Virus record (IMG/VR): IMGVR_UViG_3300032242_001280
Reading direction: 5' to 3' (one strand)
DNA: 64,000 nt
Source of the DNA: a virus
Positions within the stretch are counted from its first letter, which is position 1. Each line of letters begins with the position of its first letter. The position numbers and the translations under genes were made by a program. Below the pieces are notes generated by a model that saw only the letters and a list, made by a program, of their open reading frames with translations, was not told where the DNA came from and made no database searches. Below, in pieces: positions 5,936-44,300 of the stretch.

Positions 5936-7723
5936 TTAACCGCCACCAAGTGCTGCGCCAGCAGTAGCGCCACCTGCAGCACCGCCGCCAGCACCGCCAG
6001 TTGGACTTGGAGCACCTGCTGCACCAATTTCTCCGCCTGGTTCTGGAGGAGGACTACCCCCTAATCCGCCTTCTTGACCAGTAGCTTCAATATCACTTAG
6101 CGTTTCAAGGTCAGTATTAATACCGCCAGGCGTTACGCCTACTGTACGAAGATCACTGCCTTGCATTGCGTTTTCTGGAGTTTTTTCGCCACGCTCTTCA
6201 TGCCACATTCTATCGTTTTCTGCCATTTCAATCTCGCTAAGACCAAGATATTTCTTCATCATAAATCTCTTGCTAAGAAACTCAGTAGCAATGATTTGAG
6301 TAAATGCACCAATTCTGCTGGTGTTTAGTTCAATTTCACGATAAGCAGCAAAGTTTTGTGGCTCATTGAAACGCAATTCAAAAATAGAGTTATCAAGATT
6401 GAATCCACGCCATTTTAAAAATAATTTAAATTCTGTATCAAACTTTGGAGAAATGTATTTTTGTAAACGCTTGCAATATTCATTGAAACGATATTCTTGA
6501 ATAAGTGCAGTTGTTACTTTGCCATCACTAAATGCGCGTTCACTTTCTTCTGGACCTGTCGGAAGATAAGAACTAGGTATACGAAGAGCGCGATACATCT
6601 TGTTAGTAAAGAATCGCAGATCATCAATCTCGCCTAGATTTTGACCGCCTGGCAATACTTCAACAGATGAACCACGACCTTCTGCTGTTTGTGGAAAGAA
6701 GAAATCTTCGTTCATGCTCATTGGATTATAAGAAGCATCCATAAGATTGCTACCACCACCACTTTGTGTAGGTATGCGGCGTTGATTGATTTCATTCTTA
6801 ACACGCTCAACAAATTGCATTGCAAGATGCGCTGGCATATTACCAACATCAATCTTAAACATGCGGCGTTCAGGAGCACGAGAGATACGATAGATTAGAA
6901 TAGCGTCTTCTAATAGTTCTTTTTGCTTGAATACTTTAAAGATAGCTTCAAACAGACTAACGCCAAACGGCCAGTTAACATCTAAACCTTCTGTCAAACT
7001 CAAATGAACAATATGTTCTGCTGCAACAGGAAACTCGTTGTTACCTGCACCAAAGCGAGTATTAGGTGAAAATAATTCACCGCCAGCAGTATAACTTCTG
7101 CTGCCGCCCATATAAGGAGCAAATGCATAACTGTCATTTGGACCAGGCGGTCTCGTAATAGTATTGTTTTGTAGATTAGGATTCAAGTCACGGATATAAT
7201 AGATTTCTGGAACCTTGCCTTGACTTTCATTGACAATAACTTTAGATACACGATTCATTTCAGTCCAGAACCATTTATAAGTTTCTGGGTCACGAACAAA
7301 TACTTGATCACCATATTTCAGCGTATTACGAAAAATTTTAAACATGCGCTGGTCAAATTCATTTAACTTATACCAAGCAATAAGTTGTTCTTTTAGAATC
7401 ATTGTTTCATTTTCAGTAGCATCTTCATGAAAATGTAACTGAAAAGCTGTTCTGGTATCTTCGTTTGTTTGTGTGCAGAACTCACTCAAGATATCCATTG
7501 CACTATTTGCTTCGCTATCTAAATCCATGTTTTCGTATTGAGTATAACGATCAATACGATTAGGATGACCGCTGTAAACATCTGGTAACATGCTTTGATA
7601 GTTGCGATATGCAGCATTTGCTTGTGAACCAAGATAGTTATAACTGCTATAATCAGTTACACTGCCATTAACTGGGCTGTATGCACCATCACTTACAATA
7701 CGCCAATGCTTTTTCCACGCCAT
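5936..7723 (-). CDS. gp20: Portal vertex protein, gp20-like
   Basis: Motifs LLEDAILIYRISRAPERRMFKIDVGNMP, EDFFFP, LPGGQNLGEIDDLRFF; TAAATA at 7743-7748. Confidence 0.96.
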   Translation of the reverse strand: MAWKKHWRIVSDGAYSPVNGSVTDYSSYNYLGSQANAAYRNYQSMLPDVYSGHPNRIDRYTQYENMDLDSEANSAMDILSEFCTQTNEDTRTAFQLHFHEDATENETMILKEQLIAWYKLNEFDQRMFKIFRNTLKYGDQVFVRDPETYKWFWTEMNRVSKVIVNESQGKVPEIYYIRDLNPNLQNNTITRPPGPNDSYAFAPYMGGSRSYTAGGELFSPNTRFGAGNNEFPVAAEHIVHLSLTEGLDVNWPFGVSLFEAIFKVFKQKELLEDAILIYRISRAPERRMFKIDVGNMPAHLAMQFVERVKNEINQRRIPTQSGGGSNLMDASYNPMSMNEDFFFPQTAEGRGSSVEVLPGGQNLGEIDDLRFFTNKMYRALRIPSSYLPTGPEESERAFSDGKVTTALIQEYRFNEYCKRLQKYISPKFDTEFKLFLKWRGFNLDNSIFELRFNEPQNFAAYREIELNTSRIGAFTQIIATEFLSKRFMMKKYLGLSEIEMAENDRMWHEERGEKTPENAMQGSDLRTVGVTPGGINTDLETLSDIEATGQEGGLGGSPPPEPGGEIGAAGAPSPTGGAGGGAAGGATAGAALGGG

Positions 7724-11403: not shown

Positions 11404-11434
11404 TAAATACTATTAGAGTGTCAATTATTATTTA
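11404..11434. promoter_or_regulatory. Face-to-face late promoter cores
   Basis: TAAATA on + at 11404-11409 (towards gp26) and on - at 11434-11429 (towards tape measure). Confidence 0.6.
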
Positions 11435-11448
11435 TGGAAGTAAAAAAC

Positions 11449-12303
11449 ATGCAATCAATGAATCTAGCAGGTAACCCACTAAGTGGGCATTTTCGTCAAC
11501 CTAGTATCTTTGTTAAGCTGCCAAGCGGCGGAAGATATTGGGCACCACAAAGTTTAAATTTACCAGCCAACGGCGAAGTTGGTGTGATGCCAATGACAGC
11601 CAAAGATGAAATTATGTTGCGCACACCAGACGCACTAATGAATGGACAAGGGATTGTCACTGTAATTCAAAGTTGCTGCCCTGCCATTGTCAACGCATGG
11701 GGAATGCCTACAGTTGATGTAGATACGCTGTTAATAGCAATTCGTATTGCTACCTATGGCGATAAGATGGATATGGACAGCGATTGTCCTAATTGCAAGC
11801 ATGATAATCGTCACCAGTTAGAACTTGGTCCTGTTCTTATGAAGGTTCGTTCACCTGATTATGATAAGACAGTTGAAGTTGATGGTTTAACAATTAAATT
11901 TAAACCTACTAACTATCTACAAGGCACAAAAAATAACATTGCTAGCTTTGAAGAACAAAAGATTATTCAGTTACTGAACAACGAAGACCTTGACGCTGAC
12001 ACTCGTAAAGCACAATTTGATGTGCATCTTAATAAGATCATTGACAGCAACACTAATATTTTAAGCATGAGCACAGAAAGTATTACTACTGAAAGCGGCG
12101 ATATTGTTACAGATAGAGCTTTTATAAGCGAGTTTTATACAAATACTAGTAACAAAAATATTAAAGCAGTTCAAGCAAAACTCAAAGATATTAGTGAAAC
12201 AGCAGGACTACCGCCAGCAAGAGTTAAATGTGAGGAATGTAGTACTGAATATAATGTTGCAGTTACATTTGATTACGCAAATTTTTTCGAGCCACTATCC
12301 TAA
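11449..12303 (+). CDS. gp26: Baseplate hub/tail assembly chaperone, gp26-like
   Basis: Motifs NPLSGHFRQP..LPSGG, PMTAKDE, AIRIATYG and two CxxC pairs; ends ANFFEPLS. Start 11449 (after GGAAG) preferred over 11434. Confidence 0.8.
   Translation: MQSMNLAGNPLSGHFRQPSIFVKLPSGGRYWAPQSLNLPANGEVGVMPMTAKDEIMLRTPDALMNGQGIVTVIQSCCPAIVNAWGMPTVDVDTLLIAIRIATYGDKMDMDSDCPNCKHDNRHQLELGPVLMKVRSPDYDKTVEVDGLTIKFKPTNYLQGTKNNIASFEEQKIIQLLNNEDLDADTRKAQFDVHLNKIIDSNTNILSMSTESITTESGDIVTDRAFISEFYTNTSNKNIKAVQAKLKDISETAGLPPARVKCEECSTEYNVAVTFDYANFFEPLS
12279..12288 (+). other. Putative -1 ribosomal frameshift slippery site A AAT TTT TTC
   Basis: XXXYYYZ heptamer in the gp26 frame; the -1 frame is open from 12273 through the gp51-like ORF. 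Confidence 0.65.
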
Positions 12304-12323: not shown

Positions 12324-12518
12324 ATGGCACTGGTGGAGAGATACGAAAGTGATGTAAGAAGCATTAAGAAGAATATTCTTAAAATGTGCTGGCATATGCG
12401 TGGTGGTATCTCTTACGAAGAAGCAATGATGATGTCTGGACAAGAACGAGATATTATTGCCAAGATCATTGAGGATAACCTTGAGACCACTAAGAAGAGT
12501 GGTTTGCCTTACTTCTGA
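12324..12518 (+). CDS. gp51: gp51-like baseplate hub assembly protein, probably the C-terminal part of a frameshift fusion
   Basis: CWHMRGGISYEEAMMMSGQER motif; follows gp26. Confidence 0.7.
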   Translation: MALVERYESDVRSIKKNILKMCWHMRGGISYEEAMMMSGQERDIIAKIIEDNLETTKKSGLPYF

Positions 12519-12536
12519 TTTATTATCGGAGTTTTA

Positions 12537-12597
12537 TAATCACCTTCGGTGATTAGTTCAGGAGCTATCGCTCCTTCACCTTTTTTCATTTCTTTTT
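12537..12597 (+). terminator. Tandem hairpins plus T-rich tract (probable terminator zone between convergent units)
   Basis: TAATCACC-TTC-GGTGATTA (12537-12555) and AGGAGC-TATC-GCTCCT (12560-12575), followed by T runs. Confidence 0.5.
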
Positions 12598-12599
12598 AA

Positions 12600-12930
12600 C
12601 GATCAATCTTTTGCATTTCATATAGATTGATGTTTTCATATAGACTCCATTTCTGGAGTCTATAGATTAATAACACTTCATATGAGTATCAGTAATCACA
12701 TTAACAAGAAGAACTCGTGTAATTGAGCGGGGCGGTTGGCCTGTACCCCTTTAATCTAGTAGACTATTCCAGCGGATCAACATATTGCCCTTGTTAACGA
12801 ACAATATCTTGCTGTGGTTGCTTTTTCTCAGAGCCACAATCATTTTTTGTGCTTTGTCCCAATAGGCCAGCAATGAACGGAGTGCTGTCAACCTTCTAAC
12901 GGTATATATGGGGGGACTGTCAGTGCCAAA
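12600..12930 (-). ncRNA. Candidate structured ncRNA of unassigned family
   Basis: ORF-free, with multiple helices including an 11-bp stem with GAAA loop, a G-U-containing stem and a potential pseudoknot; these favour the minus strand. Confidence 0.6.
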
Positions 12931-12935
12931 ATTGC

Positions 12936-13601
12936 CTAATGTGCCTGTTTTTGCGCTACTACGAAGTAACCTGTGTTATCTGAGCCAGTCTCTAATTTCT
13001 TTATGTTAAAAAAATTGCCTTCTTTGCCTTTTATATATAAGAACGATTTGCCATCAATTTCAATTACATATTCATAGTGTATTAATATAGTATAGCCATA
13101 TTTGCCAAGTAATTCAATAAGTTTTTCTTCAGGTAATTTACTAATGTATGTATCTTTTTTTATGTCTTCTGCAAAAATAAATTCAGCAGTTTGTTTTTTT
13201 AAAACATATTCAAAATCAACCAGTGGTAACACCTGTGAACACCATAATGTATCATATTTTAATTTTTTGTCAATAAAATCTTCTAATTTTATTTGATGAT
13301 CAACTACATTTATTGTTATTTTTTTATTTTTTAAAAAATAAAATTTATTTTTAAGCCATTTTTTTTGAAAATCAAAATATTTTTTATTAGGTTCAACTGA
13401 ATAAACTGTGTTTGTTTTACAAAAATCAAAAAAAGGTATAAATCGTCCTAGGCCGCTGCCGCCGTCAACTATTATTTTATTTTTTAAAATATTATTAATA
13501 ACATTAATTTTTGAAAGTTTTACAAAAAAATCTAATGAGATATTTGAAAAAAACGCATCATCGATGCCTTGTATATTAAACGGTTGAGTTAATTGGGTCA
13601 T
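12936..13601 (-). CDS. Class I SAM-dependent methyltransferase-like protein
   Basis: IVDGGSGLGRF (motif I), VYSVEPN (motif II), KYDTLWC; extremely AT-rich. Confidence 0.7.
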   Translation of the reverse strand: MTQLTQPFNIQGIDDAFFSNISLDFFVKLSKINVINNILKNKIIVDGGSGLGRFIPFFDFCKTNTVYSVEPNKKYFDFQKKWLKNKFYFLKNKKITINVVDHQIKLEDFIDKKLKYDTLWCSQVLPLVDFEYVLKKQTAEFIFAEDIKKDTYISKLPEEKLIELLGKYGYTILIHYEYVIEIDGKSFLYIKGKEGNFFNIKKLETGSDNTGYFVVAQKQAH

Positions 13602-14705
13602 TTAACTTCTATCTTTAATAAAATACTGGTTACTCATAACAGTTTGAGATATTAGTGAACCATGGCTTCTCATCACATTTAACCCATCAGTGTATATCTT
13701 AAAAATTTTATCCTCACTGTCTTTTATGTGATTATAATAAGAAAGTGTATCTGGTGATTTTTCATCGTTGCTAGAAAATAATTTATGTGTGCCATCAATG
13801 CTACTTATATGACTATGTAGCAGTTTGCATCTGCCCATAGCCAAATTCCAATCTTTATAGTACCTAGTATTAACGCCATTGCCTAATCTATTCTTGCCTT
13901 GTATAGCATGTACTAATCCGCCTGTCAATATTTTAAGTGATTCAAACCAACGAATTACCATATGACACTGTTTTATATGTAATTGCGGCAAATCGCTGCT
14001 ATAATAAAAATTTTCTTGGTCTGCTCCCATGAAATCAACGCCCATGTTGTCTGAACAAAACCCATACCATTTGCCATCTCGCAGTAACACTCTTGCTTTA
14101 TCAATGCCCATTATATCGCCACGAATACCTTTTTTATAACTTGCTTTCAAAAAATCATCCATAACCGTTGTAGCAAATATTCTGCTAGTCTTGCTGATTT
14201 TTAAGCTACAACTTGGGTGATAAATCCAGTCGCTGCCAAACTTACTATAAAAATTTTCTATAGCTTTAGATTCAACACGCACTACATTGATTTTTAAATT
14301 AGGATAATATGTATTTTTTATATAGTTGGCGTGTAATATAGCAACTTCAACTTCAGGATCATCAAAGAAATCACGACGATCATATATTAGTAATTCATCT
14401 AACAATATGTTGTTATCTACAAACGCACGAAGAATAGTATGACTATCATAGCCACTGCTGTACCATAGTGCCAAATAAGTATACTTGTCACGAACTTGTT
14501 GACAGCGAGTACGCATCAACTCACTCCAAGTTTCTTGCGGTTCCGCAGTCCAGTCTACCTTTGACCAAGTATCTTCCATCCAGTTAAATTGAATGTTGTT
14601 AAAATTTCCATTAGCTAATTCAATAGCACGAATTTTACTATATTCAATCGTATTTCCGTTGACTAGATAATAACTTTCGTTATTAGATATATGAAATTTG
14701 CTCAC
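13602..14705 (-). CDS. PP-loop/adenine-nucleotide alpha-hydrolase-like (asparagine synthetase-like) protein, paralogue 2
   Basis: LALWYSSGYDSHTIL, a variant of the SGGxDS PP-loop. Confidence 0.65.
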   Translation of the reverse strand: MSKFHISNNESYYLVNGNTIEYSKIRAIELANGNFNNIQFNWMEDTWSKVDWTAEPQETWSELMRTRCQQVRDKYTYLALWYSSGYDSHTILRAFVDNNILLDELLIYDRRDFFDDPEVEVAILHANYIKNTYYPNLKINVVRVESKAIENFYSKFGSDWIYHPSCSLKISKTSRIFATTVMDDFLKASYKKGIRGDIMGIDKARVLLRDGKWYGFCSDNMGVDFMGADQENFYYSSDLPQLHIKQCHMVIRWFESLKILTGGLVHAIQGKNRLGNGVNTRYYKDWNLAMGRCKLLHSHISSIDGTHKLFSSNDEKSPDTLSYYNHIKDSEDKIFKIYTDGLNVMRSHGSLISQTVMSNQYFIKDRS

Positions 14706-15808
14706 TTGTATACTCTATCTCGCAGATAATACTGCTTACTTAAAATTGTATTTTCAATGGCATTTCCATAACTTCTCATTCTTTTTAAACCGTCGTCATA
14801 TATTTTAAAAATTTTCTTTTCATTTTCTTTTATATGATTAAAATAGTTAATAAAATCTGGAGATTTTTCATCATTTGTGTGAAAAAATTTATGAGTTCCA
14901 TCAATACTAGTAATATTACTATGCATTAGCTTACACCTGCCCATTGCTAAATTCCAATCTTCATAGTGTTTTGTATGTATTCCGCCTAGTTTTCTATCTT
15001 TGCCTTGAATGTTATGCACTAGATTCCTTGTTAACTCTGGTAAACTTTCAAACCAATCAATTACCATATGGCATTGTTTTATATGAAGTTGCGGTAAGTC
15101 ATTGCTATAGTAAAAATTTTCTTGATTTGTTCCCATAAAATCATATGCGCTGCTATCTGAGCAAAATGCGTACCATTTACCGTTGCTTAGCAATACTTTT
15201 GCTTTATCAATACCCATTATATCGCCACGGATGCCCTTCTTATAGCTTGCACTTAAAAAATCATCCATAACAGTAGTAGCAAAAACTCTGCTTGTTTTAC
15301 TAATTTTTAAACTATAACCTGGATGGTATACCCAGTCTTCACCAAATTTATTATAAAAATTTTCTATTGAAGATGCATTGCTGCGAACAACATTAATTTT
15401 TAAATTAGGATAATATGTATTTTTTATATAATTTGCATGAGTAATTGCAACCGCAACTTCAGGGTCGTCAAAGAAATCACGGCGATCATATATTAGTAAT
15501 TCATCTAATAATATATCATTGTCAACGAAAGCACGAAGGATGGTGTGACTATCATAACCGCTGCTATACCATAGCGCCAAATAGGTATACTTGTCACGAA
15601 TTTGTTGACAACGGGTGCGCAAAAGTTCGCTCCACGATTCTTTTGGATCAATTGTCCAATCTATATTGGCCCAAGTATTTTCCATCCAACTAAATTGAAT
15701 TTTATTTAAATCGCCGTTAGCTAATTCAATAGCACGAAGTTTACTATATTCAATAGTATTATTGACTAGATAATAGCTATCATCATTGAATATATGAAAC
15801 TTAGTCAA
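14702..15808 (-). CDS. PP-loop/adenine-nucleotide alpha-hydrolase-like protein, paralogue 1
   Basis: Same motif; colinear with and highly similar to 13602-14705. Confidence 0.65.
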   Translation of the reverse strand: MTKFHIFNDDSYYLVNNTIEYSKLRAIELANGDLNKIQFSWMENTWANIDWTIDPKESWSELLRTRCQQIRDKYTYLALWYSSGYDSHTILRAFVDNDILLDELLIYDRRDFFDDPEVAVAITHANYIKNTYYPNLKINVVRSNASSIENFYNKFGEDWVYHPGYSLKISKTSRVFATTVMDDFLSASYKKGIRGDIMGIDKAKVLLSNGKWYAFCSDSSAYDFMGTNQENFYYSNDLPQLHIKQCHMVIDWFESLPELTRNLVHNIQGKDRKLGGIHTKHYEDWNLAMGRCKLMHSNITSIDGTHKFFHTNDEKSPDFINYFNHIKENEKKIFKIYDDGLKRMRSYGNAIENTILSKQYYLRDRVYK

Positions 15809-16400
15809 CCAATCCTAGTCCTTCAACACTGTTTAATCCTACTTGAATAGAGATTCGTGGACTAGGAATGTTTCGAACACCATGTAATATACGAGTTTGA
15901 ATAACAGTCCATGTTCGTAGCGGTATCTGGAAACTTTCAACGATATCTAATAAACTGTGATCGTTACAGCGGTCGCCATTGTTTCGCATAAGTGGTTTGC
16001 CGCGCTCATGGTAAAACACTGTCTTGTGATCCTCGCCACCGCCGTCAAGCAAATAAATTAAGCTATAATTACGGCTTAAATCACAATGTGCGCCATTTGT
16101 ATCCTTGCCATCTTTGCCTGTATCTGCCTTGGCAATACGAATATTCACTACACTTTTATCTGTAATATTAGCATATACCCAATCTCGCATCTCATCATCT
16201 AAACTATATGCTAAGTTTGGCGCATTAATTTTCTTAACACCATCGACGATAATAGTGTCAGTGGTAATTTTATTCCAATCTATTTGCCGTTTACCCTGTG
16301 GCATTTGTTCTAATTTTGTATCCATTTGTGCATATGCACGATCAATTAAGTGTTGCGGAACATGCGGCAAATCTTGTAAAATTTTATAAAACCAAGTCAT
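15801..16400 (-). CDS. 2OG-Fe(II) oxygenase-like (DSBH) protein
   Basis: HxD (GAHCD), YSLIYLL strand, distal H (ILHGV) and RxS (PRISIQ). Confidence 0.7.
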   Translation of the reverse strand: MTWFYKILQDLPHVPQHLIDRAYAQMDTKLEQMPQGKRQIDWNKITTDTIIVDGVKKINAPNLAYSLDDEMRDWVYANITDKSVVNIRIAKADTGKDGKDTNGAHCDLSRNYSLIYLLDGGGEDHKTVFYHERGKPLMRNNGDRCNDHSLLDIVESFQIPLRTWTVIQTRILHGVRNIPSPRISIQVGLNSVEGLGLVD

Positions 16401-16410
16401 AATAATTCCT

Positions 16411-17157
16411 TTAATAACTGTATTTCTTTTTTAAACTATTCAATAAACTATTAATAGTAACGCCTGTTAGTGCAATAACAAATAGTATAGCATACATCTG
16501 GTCAATATCTAATTTACTTTTAACATCAATAATATAACTTCCTAACCCAAAATATCCACCAATGCTTCCAAAAACTACTTCAAGACTAATAAGAATACGC
16601 CAGCTATTGGCCCAACTTGTGCTTGCAATTCCTATTAGGTTTCCAATAGCGGCTGGCATATAAACTTTAAGCAGTGCTTTAGAGCCACTCCATTGTAAAT
16701 TTCGCACATGTTTTTCCCATTGCTCATGCACTGATTCTATTGCTCGTAGAATTTGTAAGCCGCTAGTCCATACTATATTCCATACAATGATACTGTATAC
16801 GACCGCTGCGCCTAGCCCCATAAACAGGCTCATAAAGGGCACCAGCACGAAACTTGGCAGTGGATTGAAGTATGCGCAATAACGCTCAAATAGCGCCTTT
16901 AACCATTGATATTTCATACAAAGTAATATGATACCAATAGTAATAAACATACCAATAATATAACTTAATACAAGTGTTCGCATAGTATAATAGAAACTAA
17001 ACCAAAACTTGCTGGTCCATATCAGATCGTATAGCGCAGATAAAATACTTGTACTATCAGGAAATATAAGTGGTTCTTGCACAATAATGTATAAAAAATG
17101 CCATCCTATTAATATAATAGAAATAGCTAACGCATTATAAAGAAAGGATCGAAACAA
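16411..17157 (-). CDS. ABC transporter permease (NitT/TauT/SsuC-like)
   Basis: About six TM segments; PLPSFVLVP and GLGSYI motifs; in an operon with the ATPase and binding protein. Confidence 0.88.
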   Translation of the reverse strand: MFRSFLYNALAISIILIGWHFLYIIVQEPLIFPDSTSILSALYDLIWTSKFWFSFYYTMRTLVLSYIIGMFITIGIILLCMKYQWLKALFERYCAYFNPLPSFVLVPFMSLFMGLGAAVVYSIIVWNIVWTSGLQILRAIESVHEQWEKHVRNLQWSGSKALLKVYMPAAIGNLIGIASTSWANSWRILISLEVVFGSIGGYFGLGSYIIDVKSKLDIDQMYAILFVIALTGVTINSLLNSLKKKYSY

Positions 17158-17740
17158 TTAAATCATCCTCATGAGTTATATTTTTGAGACCATTCTTACT
17201 AAGCAAATATATGCTGTCACCTATTATTCGTGCTTCGGTTACATTGTGTGTAACCCATATAACGGTTAAATTTTCTTCGTGAACAATTTCACGGAAATCT
17301 TTTGCAACAGTTGCGCCAGTTAATCCATCTAGCGCACTCAGTGGTTCGTCGCATAGTAATATACGCAATCCACTGCACATTCCACGGATAAGTGTAAATC
17401 GCTGGCGTTGCCCGCCACTTAACTTTGATGGACTATAATCTAGATACGGTTCTAAGTTCCATCGTTTTACAAGATCAATATATGGTTTTTGACAAACTAA
17501 TTCTAAATTTTTTCGCACAGTCATCCATGAAAATAACTGATGACTTTCTTGAAAAATACGAAATTGGTTTTTAACTAGAATATCACTTTGGGTAGCAAGT
17601 GAAGTAAGCAAACTAGTCTTGCCCACTCCACTTGTTCCCATGATAACAGCAATTTCCCCTGTCTGCACCGACAAATCTATCGGCGCAAACAGTGGAGTAT
17701 TATCACTTACTGTAACTGTATGGTTACTAAGGTTAATCAC
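17135..17740 (-). CDS. ABC transporter ATP-binding subunit
   Basis: Walker A GTSGVGKT, signature LSGGQRQR, Walker B LLCDE, H-loop VTH. Confidence 0.95.
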   Translation of the reverse strand: MINLSNHTVTVSDNTPLFAPIDLSVQTGEIAVIMGTSGVGKTSLLTSLATQSDILVKNQFRIFQESHQLFSWMTVRKNLELVCQKPYIDLVKRWNLEPYLDYSPSKLSGGQRQRFTLIRGMCSGLRILLCDEPLSALDGLTGATVAKDFREIVHEENLTVIWVTHNVTEARIIGDSIYLLSKNGLKNITHEDDLIVSILSL

Positions 17741-18720
17741 TTGACTAACTTTTCATCCCATACCATGTCACTGTGCTTTTTATCTTTACCAGCGCCGCTT
17801 AGGATACCAGCACGATATAAGAAATCTATATATCGCAGCGTACTATCTGTCTTATACTGATAAACATCATGGTTTTCTTTCTTCTGTTCAACTAACTCAT
17901 TTAGTGTTGGTTCAACTACTTCGTCTTTTGTCATATAGGTAATCAGCATTGGGCGTGGATTCTTTTCAAATTCCGCGATAGCTGCCTTTTGTGCAGCAAC
18001 CCATGCACGAGCAAGTTTAGGATTTGCATCTAACCATTTTGTCGTAGAGTATACACTATTAAGAACACCTGTTGTTTTAGTTGGGTCTTCATTGTGTGCA
18101 ATAATATGCGCTCCTTTGCTGACAGCAATATTTTGCCATGGAACGCCAATAATACCGCAATCAATTTCAGGGTTTGTTTTAGTAATTTGTGCAAGTGCTT
18201 GATCACGAGGCATTACAACGATATTACTGTCAAACTTAGCATATTCTTTATCACCAAACTTTGCAGCAGTATATTGGCGCAATTGCATCTGTTCGCCGCT
18301 ATTCAAGCCTTTCATAGCAATTTTAGTGCTTGGTGTAATATCTTTTAACGATTTAATCTTAGGATTGCCGCATACTATCCACTGATCGTATTCTTCTGCG
18401 CCAGCCAATAGTTTAACCTTAGCTGGGTCTTTATCAAAAAGAATACCAAAAGCATTTGCTCCGCCAAATACAATATCAATTTGACCTAGCAAAAGTGCTT
18501 CGTTTGCTTTTGTTGCTTCAAGAATATCTACATAAGATACCTTGATATCATTAATTCCTTCTTTCTTGGCATATTCTGGAAGCAATTCAACGGTTTTATA
18601 TAGTAGTGGTTCGCTGCTTGCATACTTAATCATTCGATTGACACGAATTTCAGTTTCTGCATGCGCAACCGACGCAAGAGATAGTAATAGAGCGATAGTT
18701 GTTATTGTTCTGTTAAACAT
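17737..18720 (-). CDS. ABC transporter substrate-binding protein (NitT/TauT/SsuA-like)
   Basis: Signal peptide MFNRTITTIALLLSLASVAHA; EALLLGQIDI, IKSLKD and WLDANP motifs. AAGGAG RBS favours ATG 18720 over 18756. Confidence 0.88.
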   Translation of the reverse strand: MFNRTITTIALLLSLASVAHAETEIRVNRMIKYASSEPLLYKTVELLPEYAKKEGINDIKVSYVDILEATKANEALLLGQIDIVFGGANAFGILFDKDPAKVKLLAGAEEYDQWIVCGNPKIKSLKDITPSTKIAMKGLNSGEQMQLRQYTAAKFGDKEYAKFDSNIVVMPRDQALAQITKTNPEIDCGIIGVPWQNIAVSKGAHIIAHNEDPTKTTGVLNSVYSTTKWLDANPKLARAWVAAQKAAIAEFEKNPRPMLITYMTKDEVVEPTLNELVEQKKENHDVYQYKTDSTLRYIDFLYRAGILSGAGKDKKHSDMVWDEKLVK

Positions 18721-18934
18721 TTTTTTCTCCTTCCATAAAGTTAACAGATAACACAAAAAACATCAATATAATTGATGCGTATAGTATTAAATTTTTAATG
18801 AAAGGAGCTTGTAGCATTGGTGGGACTAGCTACTACGGTCGGCGTTTGGTAAGGCATTACTTACGGTACAGAACTTGCGTTCTTCGCGTCGATTATGAGT
18901 TCCGAGGTCACCAAATGTGGCCTTGCTCCAAAAT
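18721..18934 (-). promoter_or_regulatory. Riboswitch-like structured 5' leader
   Basis: Multi-hairpin domain closed by GGAGC/GCUCC; the 3' strand can alternatively pair with the Shine-Dalgarno (10 bp); a terminator-like hairpin with U-tract lies between them. Confidence 0.6.
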
Positions 18935-18937
18935 TAT

Positions 18938-19576
18938 TTATGTTGGTGTTGCAGCAATAGAAATTTCTTGAATATAATGTTTTGTATCATTAATAATATC
19001 TGATAGCTGTTTTTCTATATCATTAACTTTTATATGTGGAGTACTGTAAAATTTTTCATCTGATTCAGGTGTCCACTTATTGCCTAATCTATTTTTATTA
19101 AAATTTGTTTTAATTTTTCCAACTCTTAAAAGCGTCAATCCTATTAGTGGGTTGTTTATTTCTCTGCGCAGCGCGTCTACAAATGCTTTTTGTGAATACC
19201 TTGATAACCCATATATTAAATGATTGTGCATTATTCTGTCTGTGTTGTGTACACTTCCTACAAATATAGCTTTACTCCATTTATTGCCTCGTTGGGTTAA
19301 CCAACGATGAGTAAACTTAATTTGATTTACAAGATTAGTATTCAGTGTAAGTTCTATATCTTCCCATGATTTTTCAACAAAAGGAGTAAACCCATTTGGA
19401 TCAACGCCAGCACACATGACAAAATAATCATATTGAGATAAGTCAGTATCATATGACACATTGTTTATGTTAAACGCCTCTCTACCAACAACAGTTGTAT
19501 CAATATCATTGTTTAACAATACTTCTGAAATTTTTTTACCAACACCTGTTGTGCCGCCAATAACGATAGCTTTCAT
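18938..19576 (-). CDS. Short-chain dehydrogenase/reductase (SDR)-like protein
   Basis: MKAIVIGGTTGVG Rossmann motif, CAG, NTNL, YxxxR instead of YxxxK. ATGA overlap with the upstream gene fixes the start at 19576. Confidence 0.8.
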   Translation of the reverse strand: MKAIVIGGTTGVGKKISEVLLNNDIDTTVVGREAFNINNVSYDTDLSQYDYFVMCAGVDPNGFTPFVEKSWEDIELTLNTNLVNQIKFTHRWLTQRGNKWSKAIFVGSVHNTDRIMHNHLIYGLSRYSQKAFVDALRREINNPLIGLTLLRVGKIKTNFNKNRLGNKWTPESDEKFYSTPHIKVNDIEKQLSDIINDTKHYIQEISIAATPT

Positions 19577-20565
19577 AGCTTTCCTATAATTTCTTGCAGT
19601 GTCATTACTTCCCAACCACTACATAGCACACCTTCGCGGCGCATTTGGTCAATTACTAATGCCTCGTATAGTATATTTTCACTTGTATTTTCATAATGTT
19701 TTTTATCTTTTATAGTATTCCATATATTGTTTGCTATCATTATTTGTTTTGAGTTGTGTGTTATAAACTGTGGATGCATAAAATTAACTTCACCCCAGTC
19801 AAAATCAGCTATATTAGTTGATTCCATATCGGCAGCAAATTTTGATATAAATTCAATATCTAATATTTCTCTCATACTATAATTAAAAACATATTTTCCA
19901 GTAACATAGACATCGTTTTCTTTTCGATCATACGCAGTTGAATCGCCGCCAATGTCATCTCGTTCCCTGATAGTATTTCCGTAATTATATCTTTCTCTGA
20001 ACATATCTATTGTATCTTGCGTTAATACATGATTATTATACGGATAGATTCTTTCCCAATTATCTACCATAAAATTTCTACCTTCAATCCAGTCTTTGTC
20101 TAATGGATTGCCATATTCTTCATCATTTAACAATCTTATGTTCCACAATCCTTTTGAATGAAGATTTATGGCTCCTAATTTGCGATGATATTCACTGTCT
20201 TCGTCATGTACATTGATAATAACGGGTTCTTCTTCAATTCGCATTATCCAAAAAACACTATTATGCCATCCCTTCATCCAATTTTTTTGATTTTGATCAA
20301 AAGTAACATTGCCGCGAAAACCAACTGGATATATTGTACCTGTTGACCAACGATGTTTAATTATACTTTGAATAATAAATTCAATAGTTTGGTGCGCTGG
20401 TTTCTTAATATGTACATGCGCACTGCCATCTGTTTTGAAAGGGGTATCTACTGTTGTATTGGCGGTTTTACGATTTGCTTTGCATAATGCCCAGTGCAAA
20501 TAACTTCCATAATATCCGCCTGGATATAATAGCCATACATTTTTATCAAACATCATATTATCCAC
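19573..20565 (-). CDS. Hypothetical protein (N-terminus reminiscent of a sulfotransferase/P-loop-like fold)
   Basis: 330-aa ORF overlapping both neighbours; WLLYPGGYYGSYLHWAL. Confidence 0.55.
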   Translation of the reverse strand: MDNMMFDKNVWLLYPGGYYGSYLHWALCKANRKTANTTVDTPFKTDGSAHVHIKKPAHQTIEFIIQSIIKHRWSTGTIYPVGFRGNVTFDQNQKNWMKGWHNSVFWIMRIEEEPVIINVHDEDSEYHRKLGAINLHSKGLWNIRLLNDEEYGNPLDKDWIEGRNFMVDNWERIYPYNNHVLTQDTIDMFRERYNYGNTIRERDDIGGDSTAYDRKENDVYVTGKYVFNYSMREILDIEFISKFAADMESTNIADFDWGEVNFMHPQFITHNSKQIMIANNIWNTIKDKKHYENTSENILYEALVIDQMRREGVLCSGWEVMTLQEIIGKL

Positions 20566-25992: not shown

Positions 25993-26046
25993 GTTACTAT
26001 TATATACTACTATTATTAATTAATAAATATTTTTATTAAGGCAGTC

Positions 26047-27084
26047 ATGGTTAATTTTACTTATTCCCCAGGTCAATACTATACAAGAAATCCAACTCAA
26101 CAGACTTCACTAAATCCTTTTAGTGGAATAGGCGCTGCGCCACCTGCGTATGGTATCAATAATAATTTTGGTGCGTATAGCGGATATAATCCACAATCGC
26201 CTACCCCTGGAACTGTTGGTTATAGATTACCAGCCCAAAATTATGCAAACTATGGCGTAAACAACCCAACTAATTTTGGTATACAAACATTAAAAACAAC
26301 TTTAATCAATAGCGCAGTTAATGCAGCAGTTGGTACAGTTCTGGATAATCTTATAGGCAACGACCCAAGTTCAACCCGCCTTCTTGGAACTGGATTAGCA
26401 CCAGGTGGAATCAGTGCTGATCTATTACAAGCTAGCAGTGATGCTAGTAACGCTGCATTTACTGATGATACCGAGACTCGTGTTTTAATATATGACCAGA
26501 CTGGGCAGTTCATTGGAGAAAGCGAAGTATTTAAACCACTAATGGCAATGGCTGGTGTATTGTTTCCTTATACCCCTACTATTCAGGTGGCGCATAAAGC
26601 AAGTTATGATATGTTGTCACTGGTTCATACTAACTATGTTACGCCACAATATCAACACAGTCAAATTGACAACATATCTATACAAGGAATGTTTACTGCA
26701 AACTATCCTGCAGAAGCAGAATATATGATGGCAATGATGCATTTCTTTCGCACAGTAACTAAAATGTTTTATGGCAAAGGTAACCTAACAGGAACACCGC
26801 CGCCTGTATTATATCTAGATGCTTATGGACCATATGCATTTGATCATATTCCAGTAGTAATTACTGGATTTGATTATACATTCCCAAATGATGTAGATTA
26901 TATTAGTTGCTCCGTTAATAATCAAACACAAAGAGTTCCTACTAGTCTTTCAGTAAACCTAAGTATGGTACCAACATACAGCAGAAATAATGTCAGCAAT
27001 AATTTTGGTCTTGCTGATTTCAGTAACGGTAGTTTAATAACTGGCGCTGGTGGCGGCAGAACAAGAACTGGAGGATGGTTGTAA
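26047..27084 (+). CDS. Baseplate tail-tube initiator/cap, gp48/gp54-like
   Basis: FPYTPTI, HFFRTVTKMFYG, GTPPPV and PNDVDYI motifs; TAAATA at 26024-26029. Confidence 0.65.
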   Translation: MVNFTYSPGQYYTRNPTQQTSLNPFSGIGAAPPAYGINNNFGAYSGYNPQSPTPGTVGYRLPAQNYANYGVNNPTNFGIQTLKTTLINSAVNAAVGTVLDNLIGNDPSSTRLLGTGLAPGGISADLLQASSDASNAAFTDDTETRVLIYDQTGQFIGESEVFKPLMAMAGVLFPYTPTIQVAHKASYDMLSLVHTNYVTPQYQHSQIDNISIQGMFTANYPAEAEYMMAMMHFFRTVTKMFYGKGNLTGTPPPVLYLDAYGPYAFDHIPVVITGFDYTFPNDVDYISCSVNNQTQRVPTSLSVNLSMVPTYSRNNVSNNFGLADFSNGSLITGAGGGRTRTGGWL

Positions 27085-38303: not shown

Positions 38304-41300
38304 ATGGCTAAGCGCAGAAGTATTGATTTTCTACCGTCAGTTTTTAGAACTAAAACTAACCAAAGATTTCTAAATGCAACGGTTGACCAACTGATTCAAG
38401 AACCAAGTCTTAAAAAGATTTATGGTTATATTGGTCAACAAGATCAAAGTTCAGTATTTCGCCCATCTGATTATTATATCAATGAAAACGACAGCTATTC
38501 TCAATTCTATCAGCTTGAGCCTGGCGTGGTAATTAAGAAGCGACAAAAAAATAGTAATACTTTTACTATTGATAATATCTATAACTATCCAGATTTACTA
38601 AACCAATTAGTTTCTAGCGGCGCAATTACTAACGATCACCAGCGTTTGTTTTCTAACAGATATTATAGTTACAACGGATTCGTTGATCTTGATAAGTTGA
38701 CAAACTATCGTCAGTATTATTGGGTGCCTACTGGTCCGTTGCCAGTTGATGTTACTGCCAGTGGAATTTCTTTAATAAAAGAATTTAATGTGCATCGTAT
38801 AAGTTACACTGCAAATAACCAAACTGAATTACAAAGTGCTAGTATAGGACAAAGCGGATATGTAATAGATGGATATGAAAATATTGTTAATCCAACTATT
38901 ACTCTGCAGCGCGGTGGTCGATATACATTTAATCTTGGACAAAAAGGTCATAAATTTTATATTCAAAGTGAAATTGGAACCAGCGGGGTAAGCGTCGTCC
39001 AAGCAAATATCAACACAAGAGATGTGCTAGGCGTTTCAAATAATGGTAGCGAAAGCGGTACTTTAATTTTTAATGTGCCCCTTAAAACCGCACAAGATTC
39101 TTTAATATCATTGGATACTATACAAAATATAGATATGATAGCGCATGTTCCTTATAATGCTATGCAAGGACAAAATTATGATACATTTATTCAAAATTAT
39201 AATTTAGACGGCGTTAAAGCATTTTCTACTATAACACTAAGCATTGACTGGCCATTTAATGATGGGGATTGGCTAGATGTTCCTGTAAATCAACGCAGCG
39301 GAATTTGGCAAGTTACTATTGACAATAATAAATTTTTACCTGATGGTGTAACTAATAACCCAAATTATAGAAATATGTCATTGGTGTACTTGAATGATTG
39401 GGCAGAAAATACTAAAACTTTTGTTAATCAAGGTGACAAGTACGGACACACATATGTTTATAGAAATTCAAACGGAGTAATTACTCAGTTTCCAACTATA
39501 ACTGCTCCTCTTAGTACACTATATTATCAGGATGCTGATAATCCATTAATTTATGGCGAAATAAGACTAGTTGACCCTATCCCAGGAACCTTTTTAAATA
39601 TTAATGACATTATTGGGCATGATCAGTATACCAGTCCAAATGGCATTAAATTTTCAAGCGGATTAAAAGTAAAATTTACTGGCGTGACCTTTCCAACAGA
39701 ATATCAGAATAACGAATATATTGTTGAAGGTGTTGGTACTAGTATCAAACTTTTAAAATATAATGAGTTAGTAACGCCAGAAATAATAAACCAAAATGTT
39801 GGCGATGTATTTGGTAGCGACACTATTGGATTTGATGATAGTAATTTTGATGGCACAATTAATGCTCCAACACAAAAAGATTATGTAACAATAAACCGCT
39901 CTAGCGCAGATGGCAATAGTTGGAGTCGCAATAATCGTTGGTTCCATCGTGAAGTGTTGCAATATGCTGCAGATAAGTCAAATCAAATATGGAATTTTGA
40001 CGCTGCGCAGCAAGCTCAGCGACCTATCGTTGAATTTATTCCAAACTTAAAGTTATTTGATTATGGCACAAATTATGCTGGAGCCGTAACAGTTTTTGAT
40101 AGTAATACAACTGACGCTTTTTTTCAAATAGAAGGGCAAAATAATTACGCTCTTATTAAAAATGGAAAATATGTAAGTGATAATAGATTACTGCAGAACG
40201 GACAAACTGTGATCTTTTTAAATGATGTTGATCCTAATGTAAGAAAAACAATATATCAAGTTCAAAGTATCCGTCCACGCAGTTCAGCAACATATAATTT
40301 GCCAACTATTGCAACATCACATGCAGGGACAAATACTATTTTTCTAGCAGATGTTGGAAATATTAAAGTAAATCAAAAAGTAACTTCAAGTTTAATTCAA
40401 CAAACTCAGCCAGCATTTACAACTACTGCTAGTCAAACTAGTTTCTTTTGTAATTTAATTTCAAACCTTGGCGATTTTGATGCTTATTATTTTAATGTTT
40501 ATTTGAATAATGTGCTGCAAACTAATAATGTAGATTATAGCGTAACATATCAACAATCAGTATACTATACTGGTTCAAGTTTAGTTACATCAACTGTTAA
40601 TACTATTAATTCAAACAATAATATAAATTTACCGACTATTGCTACTACATATGCTACTGTTGTATCTGGAAGTAATATTATAAGCATTAATAGTGGAAGT
40701 GGCATTGTAAATGGACAAGCAATATCAGGAACTGGTATTCCAGTTGGAACAACTGTTATAAGTGGCGGCGGTACTAGTTCACTAACTCTGAGTAACACTT
40801 GCACACAATCACTAACATCAGTAACTGTTACAACTTATGCCAATATTCAAAGTGGCCAAGTGATAGTTGATAATGGTGGAATATTTCAAAACGGTACTAC
40901 TGTTATAAGTGGTGGCGGAACCCAAACTTTACAACTTAGCAAGGTAGCGACTGCTACTGCTTCTGGCGTTGCTATAAATGTTTATCAAGCATCATCGAGC
41001 TATTATAATCCTACTATAAATTTTTTAAACAAAGTAATAAATTCTTATTCTTTTGTTAGTACGGCTGGACAAACTGCATATGGTTTAGTTAATACTAGTA
41101 TTTCTGCTACTACCAATTATAGATATGATGTTTATGTTAATGGTACACTTAAAACAATTACTTCAGATTATACGGTTAGTGCAGATGTAAATGGTCATCC
41201 TATTATAAATTTAAATTCTGCACCAATAACTGGTTCTGCGGTTGTTATTAACAATGTTGTAACTGGACCAGCAACTGGAACAACAGTATTAGTTGAGTAT

Positions 41301-44300
41301 ATTCCGCTATCAACTCCTATTTTACCAAATACTACTGTTACTAGCATTGATTCTGTAAACAACATTGTTTATATTAGTACTGCAATAAATTCTGATATTG
41401 CAGCAGGGTTGTATCTGACTTTTGATAATAGTTCCGATCAAATTCATCTTGTTCCAGTTAAGCAAGTATCAGATGGCGACAATGTTATTGCTATGGAAGG
41501 TGAAATAAACCAAGGAAATGTGTATTTTTATGATTCTGGCGTTTGGAATCTTGCTCAACTAAGAAATAGTCGTCCACAATTTCCGTTGTTTGATGTCATT
41601 GATATTAATGGATTTAGTTTAAGTGATACTACAGTTTATCCAAGTAGTAATTTTCGTGGTAGCAAACTTTTTGGATATGCAATTGGAAACTTAACTTCAA
41701 TTACTGATACTGTACTTGGATTTCCTTTAGTTAGACAATCTGTTGGAAATATTGGAGATATAGTTTTTGAAAATTATTATATTACTGATACATTTAACTA
41801 TAATTTAAATTTTAAAGACAACATTACTAATGTCAGTACAGGGTTTGTAGCAAGAATAAACTACTGGAAAAATTATTTTTTTGAAAATGGGTGGACTGTT
41901 GTATCTGATAAAAGCAAACAATATATTACAAAAATCTTTACTGCAAACGAAGCAAAGAAAAATAATTTTGATCTTGAGTTAGTATATAAGCACAGCTATT
42001 ATGAAAATAATATATTTGTGTATGTCAATGGAATTGTTGTTCCATCAACCGCATATACTGTGCAAATTAATAATATTACCACTACTATTAAATTTAATAC
42101 TGATTTGGCGGCAGGTGACAGGTTGTTTGTAAAGATAAATGGCGTTAGTAATATTTTTAAACAAAATTATACTATGCCTAAAAATATTACTAACAACAGT
42201 GAAAATTTAAATTTTAACACCATCACCCTTGGTCAAATTAGAAATCATTTGATTGAAATTGGCAATAATTGTTTAAATTTAAACGGTGAACCAGCGGGTA
42301 GTAATAATTTTAGAGATATAAACTACTCAAATATTGGTGGTAAACTTTTACAACATAGTTCAAGTTTAAGACAAGCATCTTTGCTATTGGCAAATCCAGA
42401 TGTTGATCCAGTTCGTGCCATTACATACTCAGAAAACAATTATCAAAATTTTAAAAATCAGTTAATTGATTTAATTAATAATAAAGAATTTCCTGATCCA
42501 AAAGATGCTCGCGGTTCACTAGATTTAATTTTATCAGATTTTATTAAATTAACAAACACTAACAGCACATTTTATTATACTGACATGTTAGCAACTGGTA
42601 GTCAATATATTACTAACAGCTACACTATACAAGATACCACATATCGTTCTTTCAATCTTACCAATACATATGCAAATAAAAAAAGTAGTTACAATGCTGT
42701 TCTTGTTTATCTAACTAATAAATTATATGGTACACGGCAGTTATTAGTCAACGGGGTTGATTATACGATTAACAATTTTACCGTAACAATATCATCTACT
42801 GTTAGCATTTCAAGACTTGATACTATAAGCATTTATGAATATGCAAGTACCCTTGGATGCAATGTTCCTGCAACGCCAAGCAAACTAGGATTGTATCCTA
42901 AATTTGTTCCACAGAAAATTTTAGATGATACATATTACACGCCACAACATATGATAATTGGACATGATGGAAGTTACAATCTTGCATGGAACGATTATAG
43001 AGATGATATTTTATTAGAGTATGAAAAGCGTGTATTCAATAATATTGCAGTAGATTATCAAAATAACAGTGACTATAGTTTAGTAAGTGTTGTTCCTGGC
43101 GCATTTAGAGTAACAGATTATAGCATTGTAGAATGGACACAACTATTAAGCGGCAGCTACCTTAGCTGGAGCGGACAAAACAATGTAGATATTTTTACTA
43201 ATAACAATAACACAAATTCACTGTTTGGATTTAATTATAGCAAAGCAACCGATAAGTTATTTGGACAAACACTGCCTGGATATTGGCGTGGAATTTATAA
43301 TTATTTTTATGATACTGACAAGCCACATACAAACCCATGGGAAATGCTAGGGTTTACCGAAAAACCAAAGTGGTGGGATAATCGTTATGGCGTAGCGCCT
43401 TATACAAGTCAAAATATTACCTTGTGGGGAGATTTAGAACTTGGATTAATTTATAACGGTGCGCCAAATAAAAGTTACATTGATTCAAAATATACAAGAA
43501 CTGGGCTAAATCAAATAATACCAGTAGATGAACACGGCAACTTGTTGCCGCCACTGAAATCTTTAATTGCAGAATATGATTCAAGAACAGCCAATGATAA
43601 TTGGAGAGTTGGCGATCAAAGTCCAGCAGAAACTGCATGGAGACGCAGCAGCAGTTATCCTTTTGCAATGCAAATTGCTTGGTTCTTGGCAAAACCCGCT
43701 GAATATTGTGCATTGAATTATAATTCTCGTGATGTTGTTTACAACGAATTGCTAGGACAAATAATAAATCAAAAAACAAATACTCGTATTTTTGATTATG
43801 GCATCACTAGTGCAAGTGAATTTGTTCCTGGTTTCAATGTTTGGGTGCGTGATTTATTAACCAGTAATAATTTAGATGTAACTTATAACTGGTTAGACAT
43901 TGCTATGAATAGTAGTTTTAATTTAGTTTATAAAATGTCTGGTTATACTGACAAAAGTTATTTGACAGTTGTTGCTGATCAAGTAAGTCCTGCTAGTACA
44001 AATAATAGTGTGCTTATACCGCCAGAAAATTACAAAATTAAAGTTACAAAAAGTGCACCAATAGGAAGAGCAATCTATAGCGCAGTTATAGTACAAAAAA
44101 CTAGCACAGGATATCAGATATCTGGATTTGATAAGATTCGTCCATATTTCTTAACAATTCCTAGCAAAGCAAGTGGCAATAGCTATGGACTAACAGTGGG
44201 GCAGCTTACTGGAATAATTTATAAAGACGCACAAGATACTGTTACTAGTTTTCCTTATGGCACGATATTTTCAACACATCAGCAAGTTGTTGATTTCTTA

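Follow-up and report, generated by a model that had tools for sequence, protein, structure and literature searches.

Large RNAs that contain several pseudoknots together with near-invariant loops are rare, and historically they have been ribozymes, ribonucleoprotein (RNP) cores or guides, examples being RNase P, tmRNA, introns and what are now the omega-RNAs, formerly called HEARO. Here we analyse a 64,000-nucleotide (nt) stretch of IMG/VR virus record IMGVR_UViG_3300032242_001280, referred to below as the window, in which the minus strand of positions 12,539-12,946 is confirmed to encode a structured non-coding RNA rather than spacer DNA. Several described systems resemble this RNA, with important differences. 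GOLLD and ROOL are also large, multi-domain, pseudoknotted phage RNAs that came from environmental comparative genomics and have no assigned biochemical role; however, the window RNA does not match their Rfam models, is smaller (~330-400 versus ~580-800 nt), is not located beside tRNA genes and has co-varying direct repeats. HEARO/omega-RNA of IscB and reRNA of TnpB likewise are structured pseudoknotted RNAs found beside a nuclease gene in mobile DNA, but the window RNA has no RuvC nuclease, no hypervariable guide and no match to the Rfam HEARO model. ColE1 RNA II and T4 oriF/oriG are promoter-driven structured transcripts in which an upstream element and a downstream stretch share sequence; the window RNA, with its candidate promoter, would be similar, and an AT-rich tract is also present downstream of some members of the window RNA family. 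In contrast to these origins, the window RNA is built on a core whose conservation and knotting go far beyond those of any known origin RNA, it draws no support from GC skew, it has no homologue among PLSDB plasmids and its unwinding tract is inconsistent. Finally, there are template RNAs with terminal direct repeats at which a polymerase realigns or jumps, such as telomerase RNA, the DRT2 non-coding RNA (ncRNA) with its two ACA motifs and the R repeats of retroviruses. Identical short direct repeats also bracket a segment of the window RNA, yet no reverse transcriptase is encoded near it, there is no evidence of copying and the repeat period cannot be divided by three, which is also why a Neo-like endless reading frame made by rolling-circle copying was rejected.

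The RNA-level structure is settled by covariation and not by folding energy. Homologues are present in >140 IMG/VR contigs, giving 78 representatives after clustering at 90% identity, and two alignments were analysed: a MAFFT core alignment of 68 sequences, and an alignment of 86 sequences from a covariance model termed R1 (156 positions). In the MAFFT alignment 79.2% of cells are paired versus 60.8% when shuffled, with a covariation score of 0.503 versus 0.183. The corresponding values for the R1 alignment are 84.6% versus 61.2% and 0.571 versus 0.178, and double-change cells number 940 versus 306 in the shuffles. The covariation score was matched by none of 500 shuffles, and slid controls did not exceed 0.195 over both alignments (0.147 for R1). 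Applied to the window's own clade, the full structure is 88% paired versus 78%. Folding energy, which by itself is weak evidence, gives z = -2.38 for the minus strand, with 2 of 100 shuffles folding as well, and z = -1.44 for the plus strand. G-U outnumbers every other pair at several positions, with counts such as 60 of the 86 sequences for GU and 58 for UG, indicating that the folded strand is the minus strand of the window. A prior reading of the window made from its letters only (the sequence-only reading) had proposed an unannotated minus-strand phage ncRNA with a pseudoknot, perhaps like a ribozyme, or else a structured origin of replication, citing G-U pairs as evidence of strand; compensatory changes among >80 sequences support the strand, the helices and the pseudoknot that it named. 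A coding signal was also looked for in the RNA and none was seen, the median longest open reading frame (ORF) being 43 codons versus 45 in shuffles.

At least 10 helices are supported by covariation (Table 1), and the helices, loops and repeats of the sequence-only reading are all present where it had placed them on the minus strand. The H2 stem has four pair types per position and is 92% paired among the 86 sequences, and in a mutual-information scan its pairs are 97-99% Watson-Crick with four pair types. Its near-invariant loop, CUCUGAGAAAAAGCAA, holds an inner stem of 2-4 bp and served as the signature for retrieving the family. The H3 stem shows double changes at seven of nine pairs in the window's clade and at all nine family-wide, with pairing at 82-98%. 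In the three-way junction H5, H6 and H7 are 91%, 89% and 63% paired, respectively, with double changes in each; H6 is the GGGG/CCCC hairpin that had been noticed before. Pairing reaches 96% in the H8 stem, where G-C pairs have changed to A-U, and the CAGCA/UGCUG hairpin has C-G replaced by U-A in 4 of 15 sequences. The GUCCC/GGGAC helix, Pa, covaries by eye in the window's clade (GUUCA/UGGAC, UCCA/UGGA and AUCC/GGAU); a fixed-column count gives only 40% pairing, a count that fails as MAFFT shifts the 3' strand. Long-range helix P1 is 97% paired with one-sided changes only (G-U/A-U), and in the most distant members of the family, the island-type members described below, GGUCGG and CCGACC occupy its position. 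In regards to the 3' part, all of the 78 representatives have a hairpin where the window has the 11-bp stem with its GAAA loop (H9); its length is 9 bp or more (median 13), and in 31 of them its loop is GNRA. The 8-bp stem that the sequence-only reading placed next to it is present in the window; only 4-5 bp of it are kept in close relatives, and it competes with P1.

Two pseudoknots tie these elements together. PK1, the pseudoknot already proposed for the H3 loop, shows compensatory changes in the close clade, from U-A to C-G in six sequences and from A-U to G-C in five, giving the variants GCUAACAA/UUGUUAGU and GUUAGCAA/UUGCUAAU. Across the family its pairing is 68%, with many pair types and in spite of shifts in register from clade to clade, and it lies outside the covariance model. 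PK2 has 95-100% Watson-Crick pairs in the mutual-information scan and is 95-96% paired with 5-6 pair types among the 86 sequences, although the covariance model does not impose it. An unbiased ranking by mutual information places the H2 stem first, then PK2, then PK1 (12797-12791 with 12707-12701).

Table 1. Coordinates of the RNA and its flanking elements in the window, in order along the minus strand.
Feature	Position	Strand	Sequence or pairing	Remark
GGCA repeats	12924-12946	minus	AGGCA 12946-12942, AGGCA 12937-12933, GGCA 12927-12924	Candidate promoter; overlaps the stop codon of the 221-aa gene
Helix Pa	12917-12913 with 12860-12856	minus	GUCCC with GGGAC	Encloses the 5' domain; crosses helix P1
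Hairpin CAGCA/UGCUG	12868-12887	minus	CAGCA/UGCUG	97% paired
Long-range helix P1	12894-12889 with 12629-12624	minus	AGGUUG with CAAUCU	RNAalifold prediction
Hairpin H2	12813-12838	minus	Stem UGUGG/CCACA, 12838-12834 with 12817-12813	Top mutual-information pairs
Hairpin H3	12778-12811	minus	Stem AUAUUGUUC/GGGCAAUAU, 12807-12799 with 12790-12782	Extension 12811-12809 with 12780-12778
PK1	12798-12791 with 12707-12700	minus	H3 loop GUUAACAA with UUGUUAAU	Predicted by the sequence-only reading
PK2	12772-12769 with 12739-12736	minus	C-UGG with the H6 tetraloop	New contact, from the mutual-information scan
Three-way junction	12710-12757	minus	H5, 12757-12754 with 12713-12710	H5 encloses H6 and H7
H6	12750-12728	minus	GGGGU..GCCCC	Inner GG/CC and tetraloop
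H7	12727-12725 with 12716-12714	minus		Inside H5
Hairpin H8	12675-12687	minus	ACU/AGU	Loop presents repeat copy 1, AUAUGAA 12683-12677
Repeat copy 1	12687-12676	minus	A-CUC-N7-G; AUAUGAA 12683-12677	In the H8 hairpin loop
Hairpin H9	12639-12664	minus	11-bp stem, GAAA loop	Between the two repeats
Repeat copy 2	12627-12616	minus	A-UCU-N7-A; AUAUGAA 12623-12617	In the 3' tail, after the P1 3' strand
Alternative 8-bp hairpin	12602-12631	minus		Surrounds repeat copy 2; mutually exclusive with P1
Downstream hairpin	12575-12560	minus	AGGAGC-GAUA-GCUCCU	Conserved; on the plus strand, terminator of the hub operon
Downstream hairpin	12553-12539	minus	AUCACC-GA-AGGUGAU	Conserved

The two direct repeats covary with each other in identity. 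Specifically, the same 7-9 nt occur in both copies within each RNA and differ between RNAs, with variants that include AUAUGAA, AAAUGAA, GGAUGAU, ACAUGAU, GAAUAAU, UCGUGAU, ACCGAAC and AGCAGAAG. The copies share at least 7 identical nt in 71 of the 78 representatives, among which there are 30 distinct 7-mers, and the copy-to-copy identity within an RNA is 0.84 versus 0.61 when permuted, a value reached by none of 2000 permutations. Spacing between the copies is 48-72 nt (median 56), always with a hairpin between them, and even the island-type members keep the repeats, as in CUUCAAGAU twice and CUUUGAAAU twice. All three AUAUGAA copies that had been listed for the window are there; two of them are the family-wide direct repeat and the middle one is specific to the window. 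There is no consistent segment complementary to the repeats inside the RNA, and a search of the flanks for the repeat complement gave noise only, 7-mers being too short to trace in trans. The fixed differences in the repeat flanks are transitions only (CUC versus UCU, and G versus A), and, judging from these sequences, one partner could therefore read both copies via wobble pairs. Note that the repeat was rejected as a general promoter, as it is not enriched in the window, and that iterons were rejected on the rarity of third repeat copies (5 of 73 members).

The source of the window is a jumbo myophage with a T4-type portal at 5936-7723 (minus strand) and a T4_baseplate hub protein at 11434-12303 (plus strand); its closest isolated phages are Atu_ph07, PA5oct and RaK2-like phages, with a portal identity of only ~47%. 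The sequence-only reading had pointed to the neighbourhood of the hub gene, which it named gp51 and which is a T4_baseplate/baseplate-hub homologue, as the place to look for homologues, and nhmmer with the intergenic gap sequence found the RNA in 45 of 80 loci (82 in another count) that encode relatives of the hub, even at 32-38% hub protein identity. Three near-identical IMG/VR contigs were uninformative, the gap being conserved no better than the hub gene. An exact-pattern scan of IMG/VR with the conserved loop GCUCUG.GAA..AG...CAAC gave at least 120 matches, and nearly all of the matches listed are true members. R1 finds exactly one match in each of 86 loci at 35-137 bits, and the window matches the full model (1-156) with 120.4 bits (E = 5e-30). 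The features that define the family in R1 are H2 with a GCUCUG-GAAAAAG-CAAC loop, the H3 loop pseudoknot, a pseudoknot between CCGUUG and the H6 tetraloop, and the GGGGU..GCCCC three-way junction, and the window RNA has all of them. As a rule there is one copy per near-complete jumbo-phage genome, for example in a 338-kb contig with terminal repeats. The exception is IMGVR_UViG_3300044644_001125 (327 kb), which carries four divergent paralogues at ~35k, 165k, 233k and 311k that are ~86% alike. In these paralogues H2 is without the signature loop and a CCGUCAG/GGUACCGGCUGACCGCC core is retained, and each is then followed by arrays of CACAUACAUUUUA-type repeats that resemble phage promoters.

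A scan of one genome per prokaryotic species revealed five island-type members at 50-58 bits, carried by assemblies of Rhizobiaceae, Erythrobacteraceae, Sphingomonadaceae, Dechloromonas and Burkholderiaceae, with one copy per genome in the three genomes that were searched whole. Carriers include Endobacterium cereale RZME27 and Erythrobacteraceae E2-1. Their neighbours encode HNH nucleases, a NUDIX protein, serine resolvases, tyrosine recombinases and a STAND NTPase, and no jumbo-phage genes are present beside them. Among 151 sampled Sphingomonadaceae genomes the RNA occurs only in the carrier already known, indicating that the element is sporadic and mobile in bacteria. In the Endobacterium cereale island (L340:3438-6011) a gene for a Schlafen/AlbA_2 plus NB-ARC/AAA STAND-type NTPase lies ~3.5 kb from the island-type RNA, beside a DNA invertase gene, and is likely an anti-phage defence gene. 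Cultured phages gave a different result. Blastn searches of 50,697 isolated phage records and of the PLSDB plasmids with the gap, the window core, a consensus-like core and an island-type member gave no true match, and R1 found none in eight cultured phages (Atu_ph07, Phosso, PA5oct, RaK2, Serratia BF, Melnitz, S-SRM01 and phiN3), the best score being 17.7 bits. Overall the family is large and undescribed; it resides in jumbo phages related to T4 and, in a few cases, in mobile islands of bacteria.

Two cultured phages have unannotated gaps of their own in this region. In Serratia phage BF (L207:7059-7861, on the strand opposite to the hub gene) an 803-nt gap is located at the equivalent position, folds with z = -3.97 (other strand -2.14) and ends in a hairpin and U-run. 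It matches neither R1 nor Rfam. Its sequence recurs with 65-78% identity among isolated RaK2-like jumbo phages, 62 in all, each genome having it in 4-5 places, and cultivable phages may thus have a multi-copy RNA element that is either distinct from the window RNA or a very divergent form of it. Sinorhizobium phage Phosso has a ~1-kb gap (L204:8233-9246) between the RNase HI and Holliday-junction resolvase genes in the syntenic region, again with no R1 or Rfam match.

Comparison with known RNA families places the window RNA outside all of them. Rfam 15 (4227 models) gave no match in the whole window at gathering thresholds, and in a relaxed scan of 12450-13000 (E up to 10) the best hit, an unrelated 41-nt motif on the other strand, scored 16.7 bits against a threshold of 53.5. 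ARAGORN found no tRNA or tmRNA in the window, and Rfam on the island-type loci found only a tRNA elsewhere. These searches bear out the sequence-only reading, which could match the element to no tRNA, tmRNA, RNase P, 6S or intron core and had named an Rfam search as a check. RNase P, 6S and known self-cleaving ribozymes were rejected in the absence of a covariance-model match at E up to 10, as were group I and II introns, for which it also holds that the element is intergenic with no consistent downstream exon on the same strand. An omega-RNA/HEARO-type guide was rejected in that the neighbouring nucleases are GIY-YIG, PD-(D/E)XK or HNH, and GIY-YIG occurs without the RNA in the three cultured phages of that kind that were searched whole. 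A full-text literature search for a prior description returned only a bulk catalogue of >10,000 candidate RNAs from IMG/VR (PMC10690425), which may include this RNA and which, in the part of it that was accessible, does not name it. From these comparisons we count the RNA as a new class.

The RNA appears to carry its own signals. A TAGGCA-N4-8-ATAG(C/T) motif stays with the RNA under any upstream gene (c2, c8, c11 or methyltransferase-like), and a covarying 5' hairpin, found upstream of the RNA in most clades, is likewise independent of the upstream gene. Both accompany the RNA also when its orientation to the hub gene flips. The GGCA/ATAG motif is probably a promoter from which the RNA would be transcribed on its own; as a genome-wide promoter it was rejected, not being enriched elsewhere in the window. 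At the other end, in the major clade, a hairpin with a UUCG or GNRA cap comes after repeat 2 and leads into a run rich in U, suggesting a transcript of ~380-400 nt. The downstream hairpins of the window also show compensatory changes, for example GGGAC-GAUA-GUCCC and GAUGUGC-GAA-GCACAUC. We infer that the RNA runs from ~12,920 to ~12,610 on the minus strand, possibly on to 12,539.

The RNA is located in a gap (12519-12935) between convergent genes. On the plus-strand side are the hub gene and then a 64-aa ORF ending at 12518, and on the minus-strand side is a 221-aa methyltransferase-like gene ending at 12936. The canonical order in the family is late sigma factor (gp55-like), gp47, gp46, a small ORF, a nuclease gene and the RNA, followed by the convergent 64-aa ORF and hub gene. 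The nuclease slot holds a 140-aa GIY-YIG (PF19835) or a 170-aa PD-(D/E)XK (PF24608) protein, directly upstream on the same strand, at ~60 of 78 loci. In the window an accessory cassette of ~8 kb (12936-20558, minus strand) is inserted between the nuclease slot of this recombination operon and the RNA, and most relatives are without the insert. The cassette encodes the methyltransferase-like protein, tandem paralogues at 13602-14705 and 14702-15808 (~78% mutual nucleotide identity) and a 2OG-Fe(II) oxygenase-like protein. Elsewhere, the window contains a single ORF of 4911 aa at 38304-53039 (plus strand), whose neighbours include several ORFs of >1000 aa. A side observation concerns the 140-aa GIY-YIG protein beside the RNA (L184:10565-10990 and homologues; SegE-like). 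PHROGs and many phage records of GenBank give it the label 'NAD synthetase', which looks like a propagated annotation error.

Our preferred reading, held tentatively and at somewhat short of an even chance, is that the element is an independently transcribed RNA that acts in trans, with a ribozyme- or RNP-like core and two identical elements that pair with an external strand. In its fold the predicted long-range helix closes around a 5' domain and a core, the core consisting of the conserved-loop hairpin, the hairpin whose loop forms PK1 and the three-way junction with the PK2 tetraloop, and the 3' domain consists of the GNRA-capped hairpin flanked by the two identical elements of 7-9 nt. The invariant loops and double-pseudoknot core would form a compact tertiary scaffold that is either protein-binding or catalytic. 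The two exposed elements, in the hairpin loop and the 3' tail, would both pair with one and the same complement, carried by another nucleic acid that is presumably the partner of the RNA. The RNA would then be a bivalent, lineage-specific recognition device that works in trans, whether in infection or in the biology of mobile elements. Several points weigh against this reading. No conserved protein partner was found, nor was a partner sequence for the repeats, whose 7-mers are too short to trace in trans. The window itself has no U-rich terminator after repeat 2, and the ends behind the length of ~330-400 nt are putative. Finally, the aligned sequences share descent and hence the shuffle statistics overstate their independence; the 30 repeat variants and the multiple pair types argue for many separate events.

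Of the other explanations, an attractive one for repeats that are identical without being complementary is a replication-origin primer, in which a persistent R-loop would form near the RNA 3' end and the loop repeat would pair with template DNA opposite the downstream copy. Such pairing would explain why both RNA copies are identical, and it is consistent with two identical repeats that have no complement within the RNA, with a conserved promoter-like motif and with base composition, the 50 nt after repeat 2 being 70% AT versus 56% in the RNA body and 64% in coding flanks (57 of 69 cases). One rhizobial member even has >200 nt of 76-86% AT where the locus mean is 51%; however, this tract is weak or absent in most members and striking in that one only. 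The island-type members lie beside resolvases and integrases, and the four copies in the 327-kb phage are what multiple origins would give. ColE1 RNA II, with a G-rich loop and a C-stretch, is reportedly an analogous case of an R-loop origin (Masukata and Tomizawa 1990, cited in PMC11012335). Precedent is also found in T4, where an origin consists of a promoter and an unwinding element, is primed from an R-loop and is located close to a point of strand switching (PMC3016281). Nevertheless, we consider this explanation unlikely. The major clade has a terminator-like hairpin after repeat 2, neither two pseudoknots nor invariant loops are needed in known origin transcripts, no gene for an initiator or a primase is linked, and blastn gave no match among PLSDB plasmids. 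In addition, the cumulative GC-skew minimum of the window is at ~26-27 kb and not at the RNA. The region of this minimum (~26000-27000) is a divergent junction between the end of a gp55-like operon at 25992 (minus strand) and the start of plus-strand structural genes at 26047, and if the window holds an origin, this junction is a better candidate than the RNA locus.

A self-processing ribozyme would instead use the double-pseudoknot core to cleave or ligate at two identical sites, thereby releasing or circularising the ~55-nt hairpin segment or setting the mature 3' end. Two pseudoknots, near-invariant unpaired nucleotides and GNRA loops are ribozyme-like architecture, and identical sites at a constrained spacing would give identical junctions, but there is no similarity to any Rfam ribozyme family even at relaxed thresholds and no internal guide pairing with the repeats, leaving this quite unlikely in our view. 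Position within the operon raises the further thought that the RNA guides or regulates the adjacent small nuclease, or that it is simply a conserved gene on which free-standing homing endonucleases land; besides the upstream nuclease gene at most loci, HNH genes occur near the RNA in two bacterial islands. We judge this improbable. The GIY-YIG protein is found in 767 isolated-phage records in other contexts, and R1 finds no RNA in three such genomes searched whole; in isolated relatives the synteny is unchanged, the nuclease slot is occupied by endonuclease VII or a resolvase, and there is no RNA match. Thus the adjacency reflects synteny of a recombination module and not partnership, and the nuclease was rejected as an obligate partner. 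The 8-kb cassette moreover parts nuclease and RNA in the window's lineage, and no segment of the RNA is hypervariable in the manner of a guide. Highly improbable, finally, is that the element serves the flanking operons in cis, as a 3' UTR stabiliser or a bidirectional terminator region, or is a DNA-level repeat or iteron that makes no functional free RNA. The location between convergent genes in most genomes, the plus-strand terminator hairpin at the downstream end and the three 7-mer copies in the window would fit such an element, yet G-U-rich covariation, two pseudoknots and near-invariant loops over >300 nt go far beyond what a terminator needs, the RNA retains its upstream motif and changes place or orientation without its neighbours doing so, and extra repeat copies are as rare as noted above.

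A bolder reading, which we regard as somewhat unlikely, would make the RNA a novel machine for catalysis or templating, with the double-pseudoknot core acting on or through the two identical elements. It may cut and join at both repeats and so release or circularise the hairpin segment, it may form an R-loop on its own gene that primes replication of jumbo phages and islands, or it may be a bivalent guide that is programmable via paired mutation. That two direct repeats covary in identity is evidence of an unusual kind for base-paired reading of an outside nucleic acid, and it makes both partner and mechanism directly testable. The RNA is abundant in uncultured freshwater and marine jumbo phages, and its absence from all isolated phages searched explains why it was missed. 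Its occurrence in bacterial mobile islands indicates that its function is portable, and the island-type copies in two cultured bacteria open an immediate experimental route.
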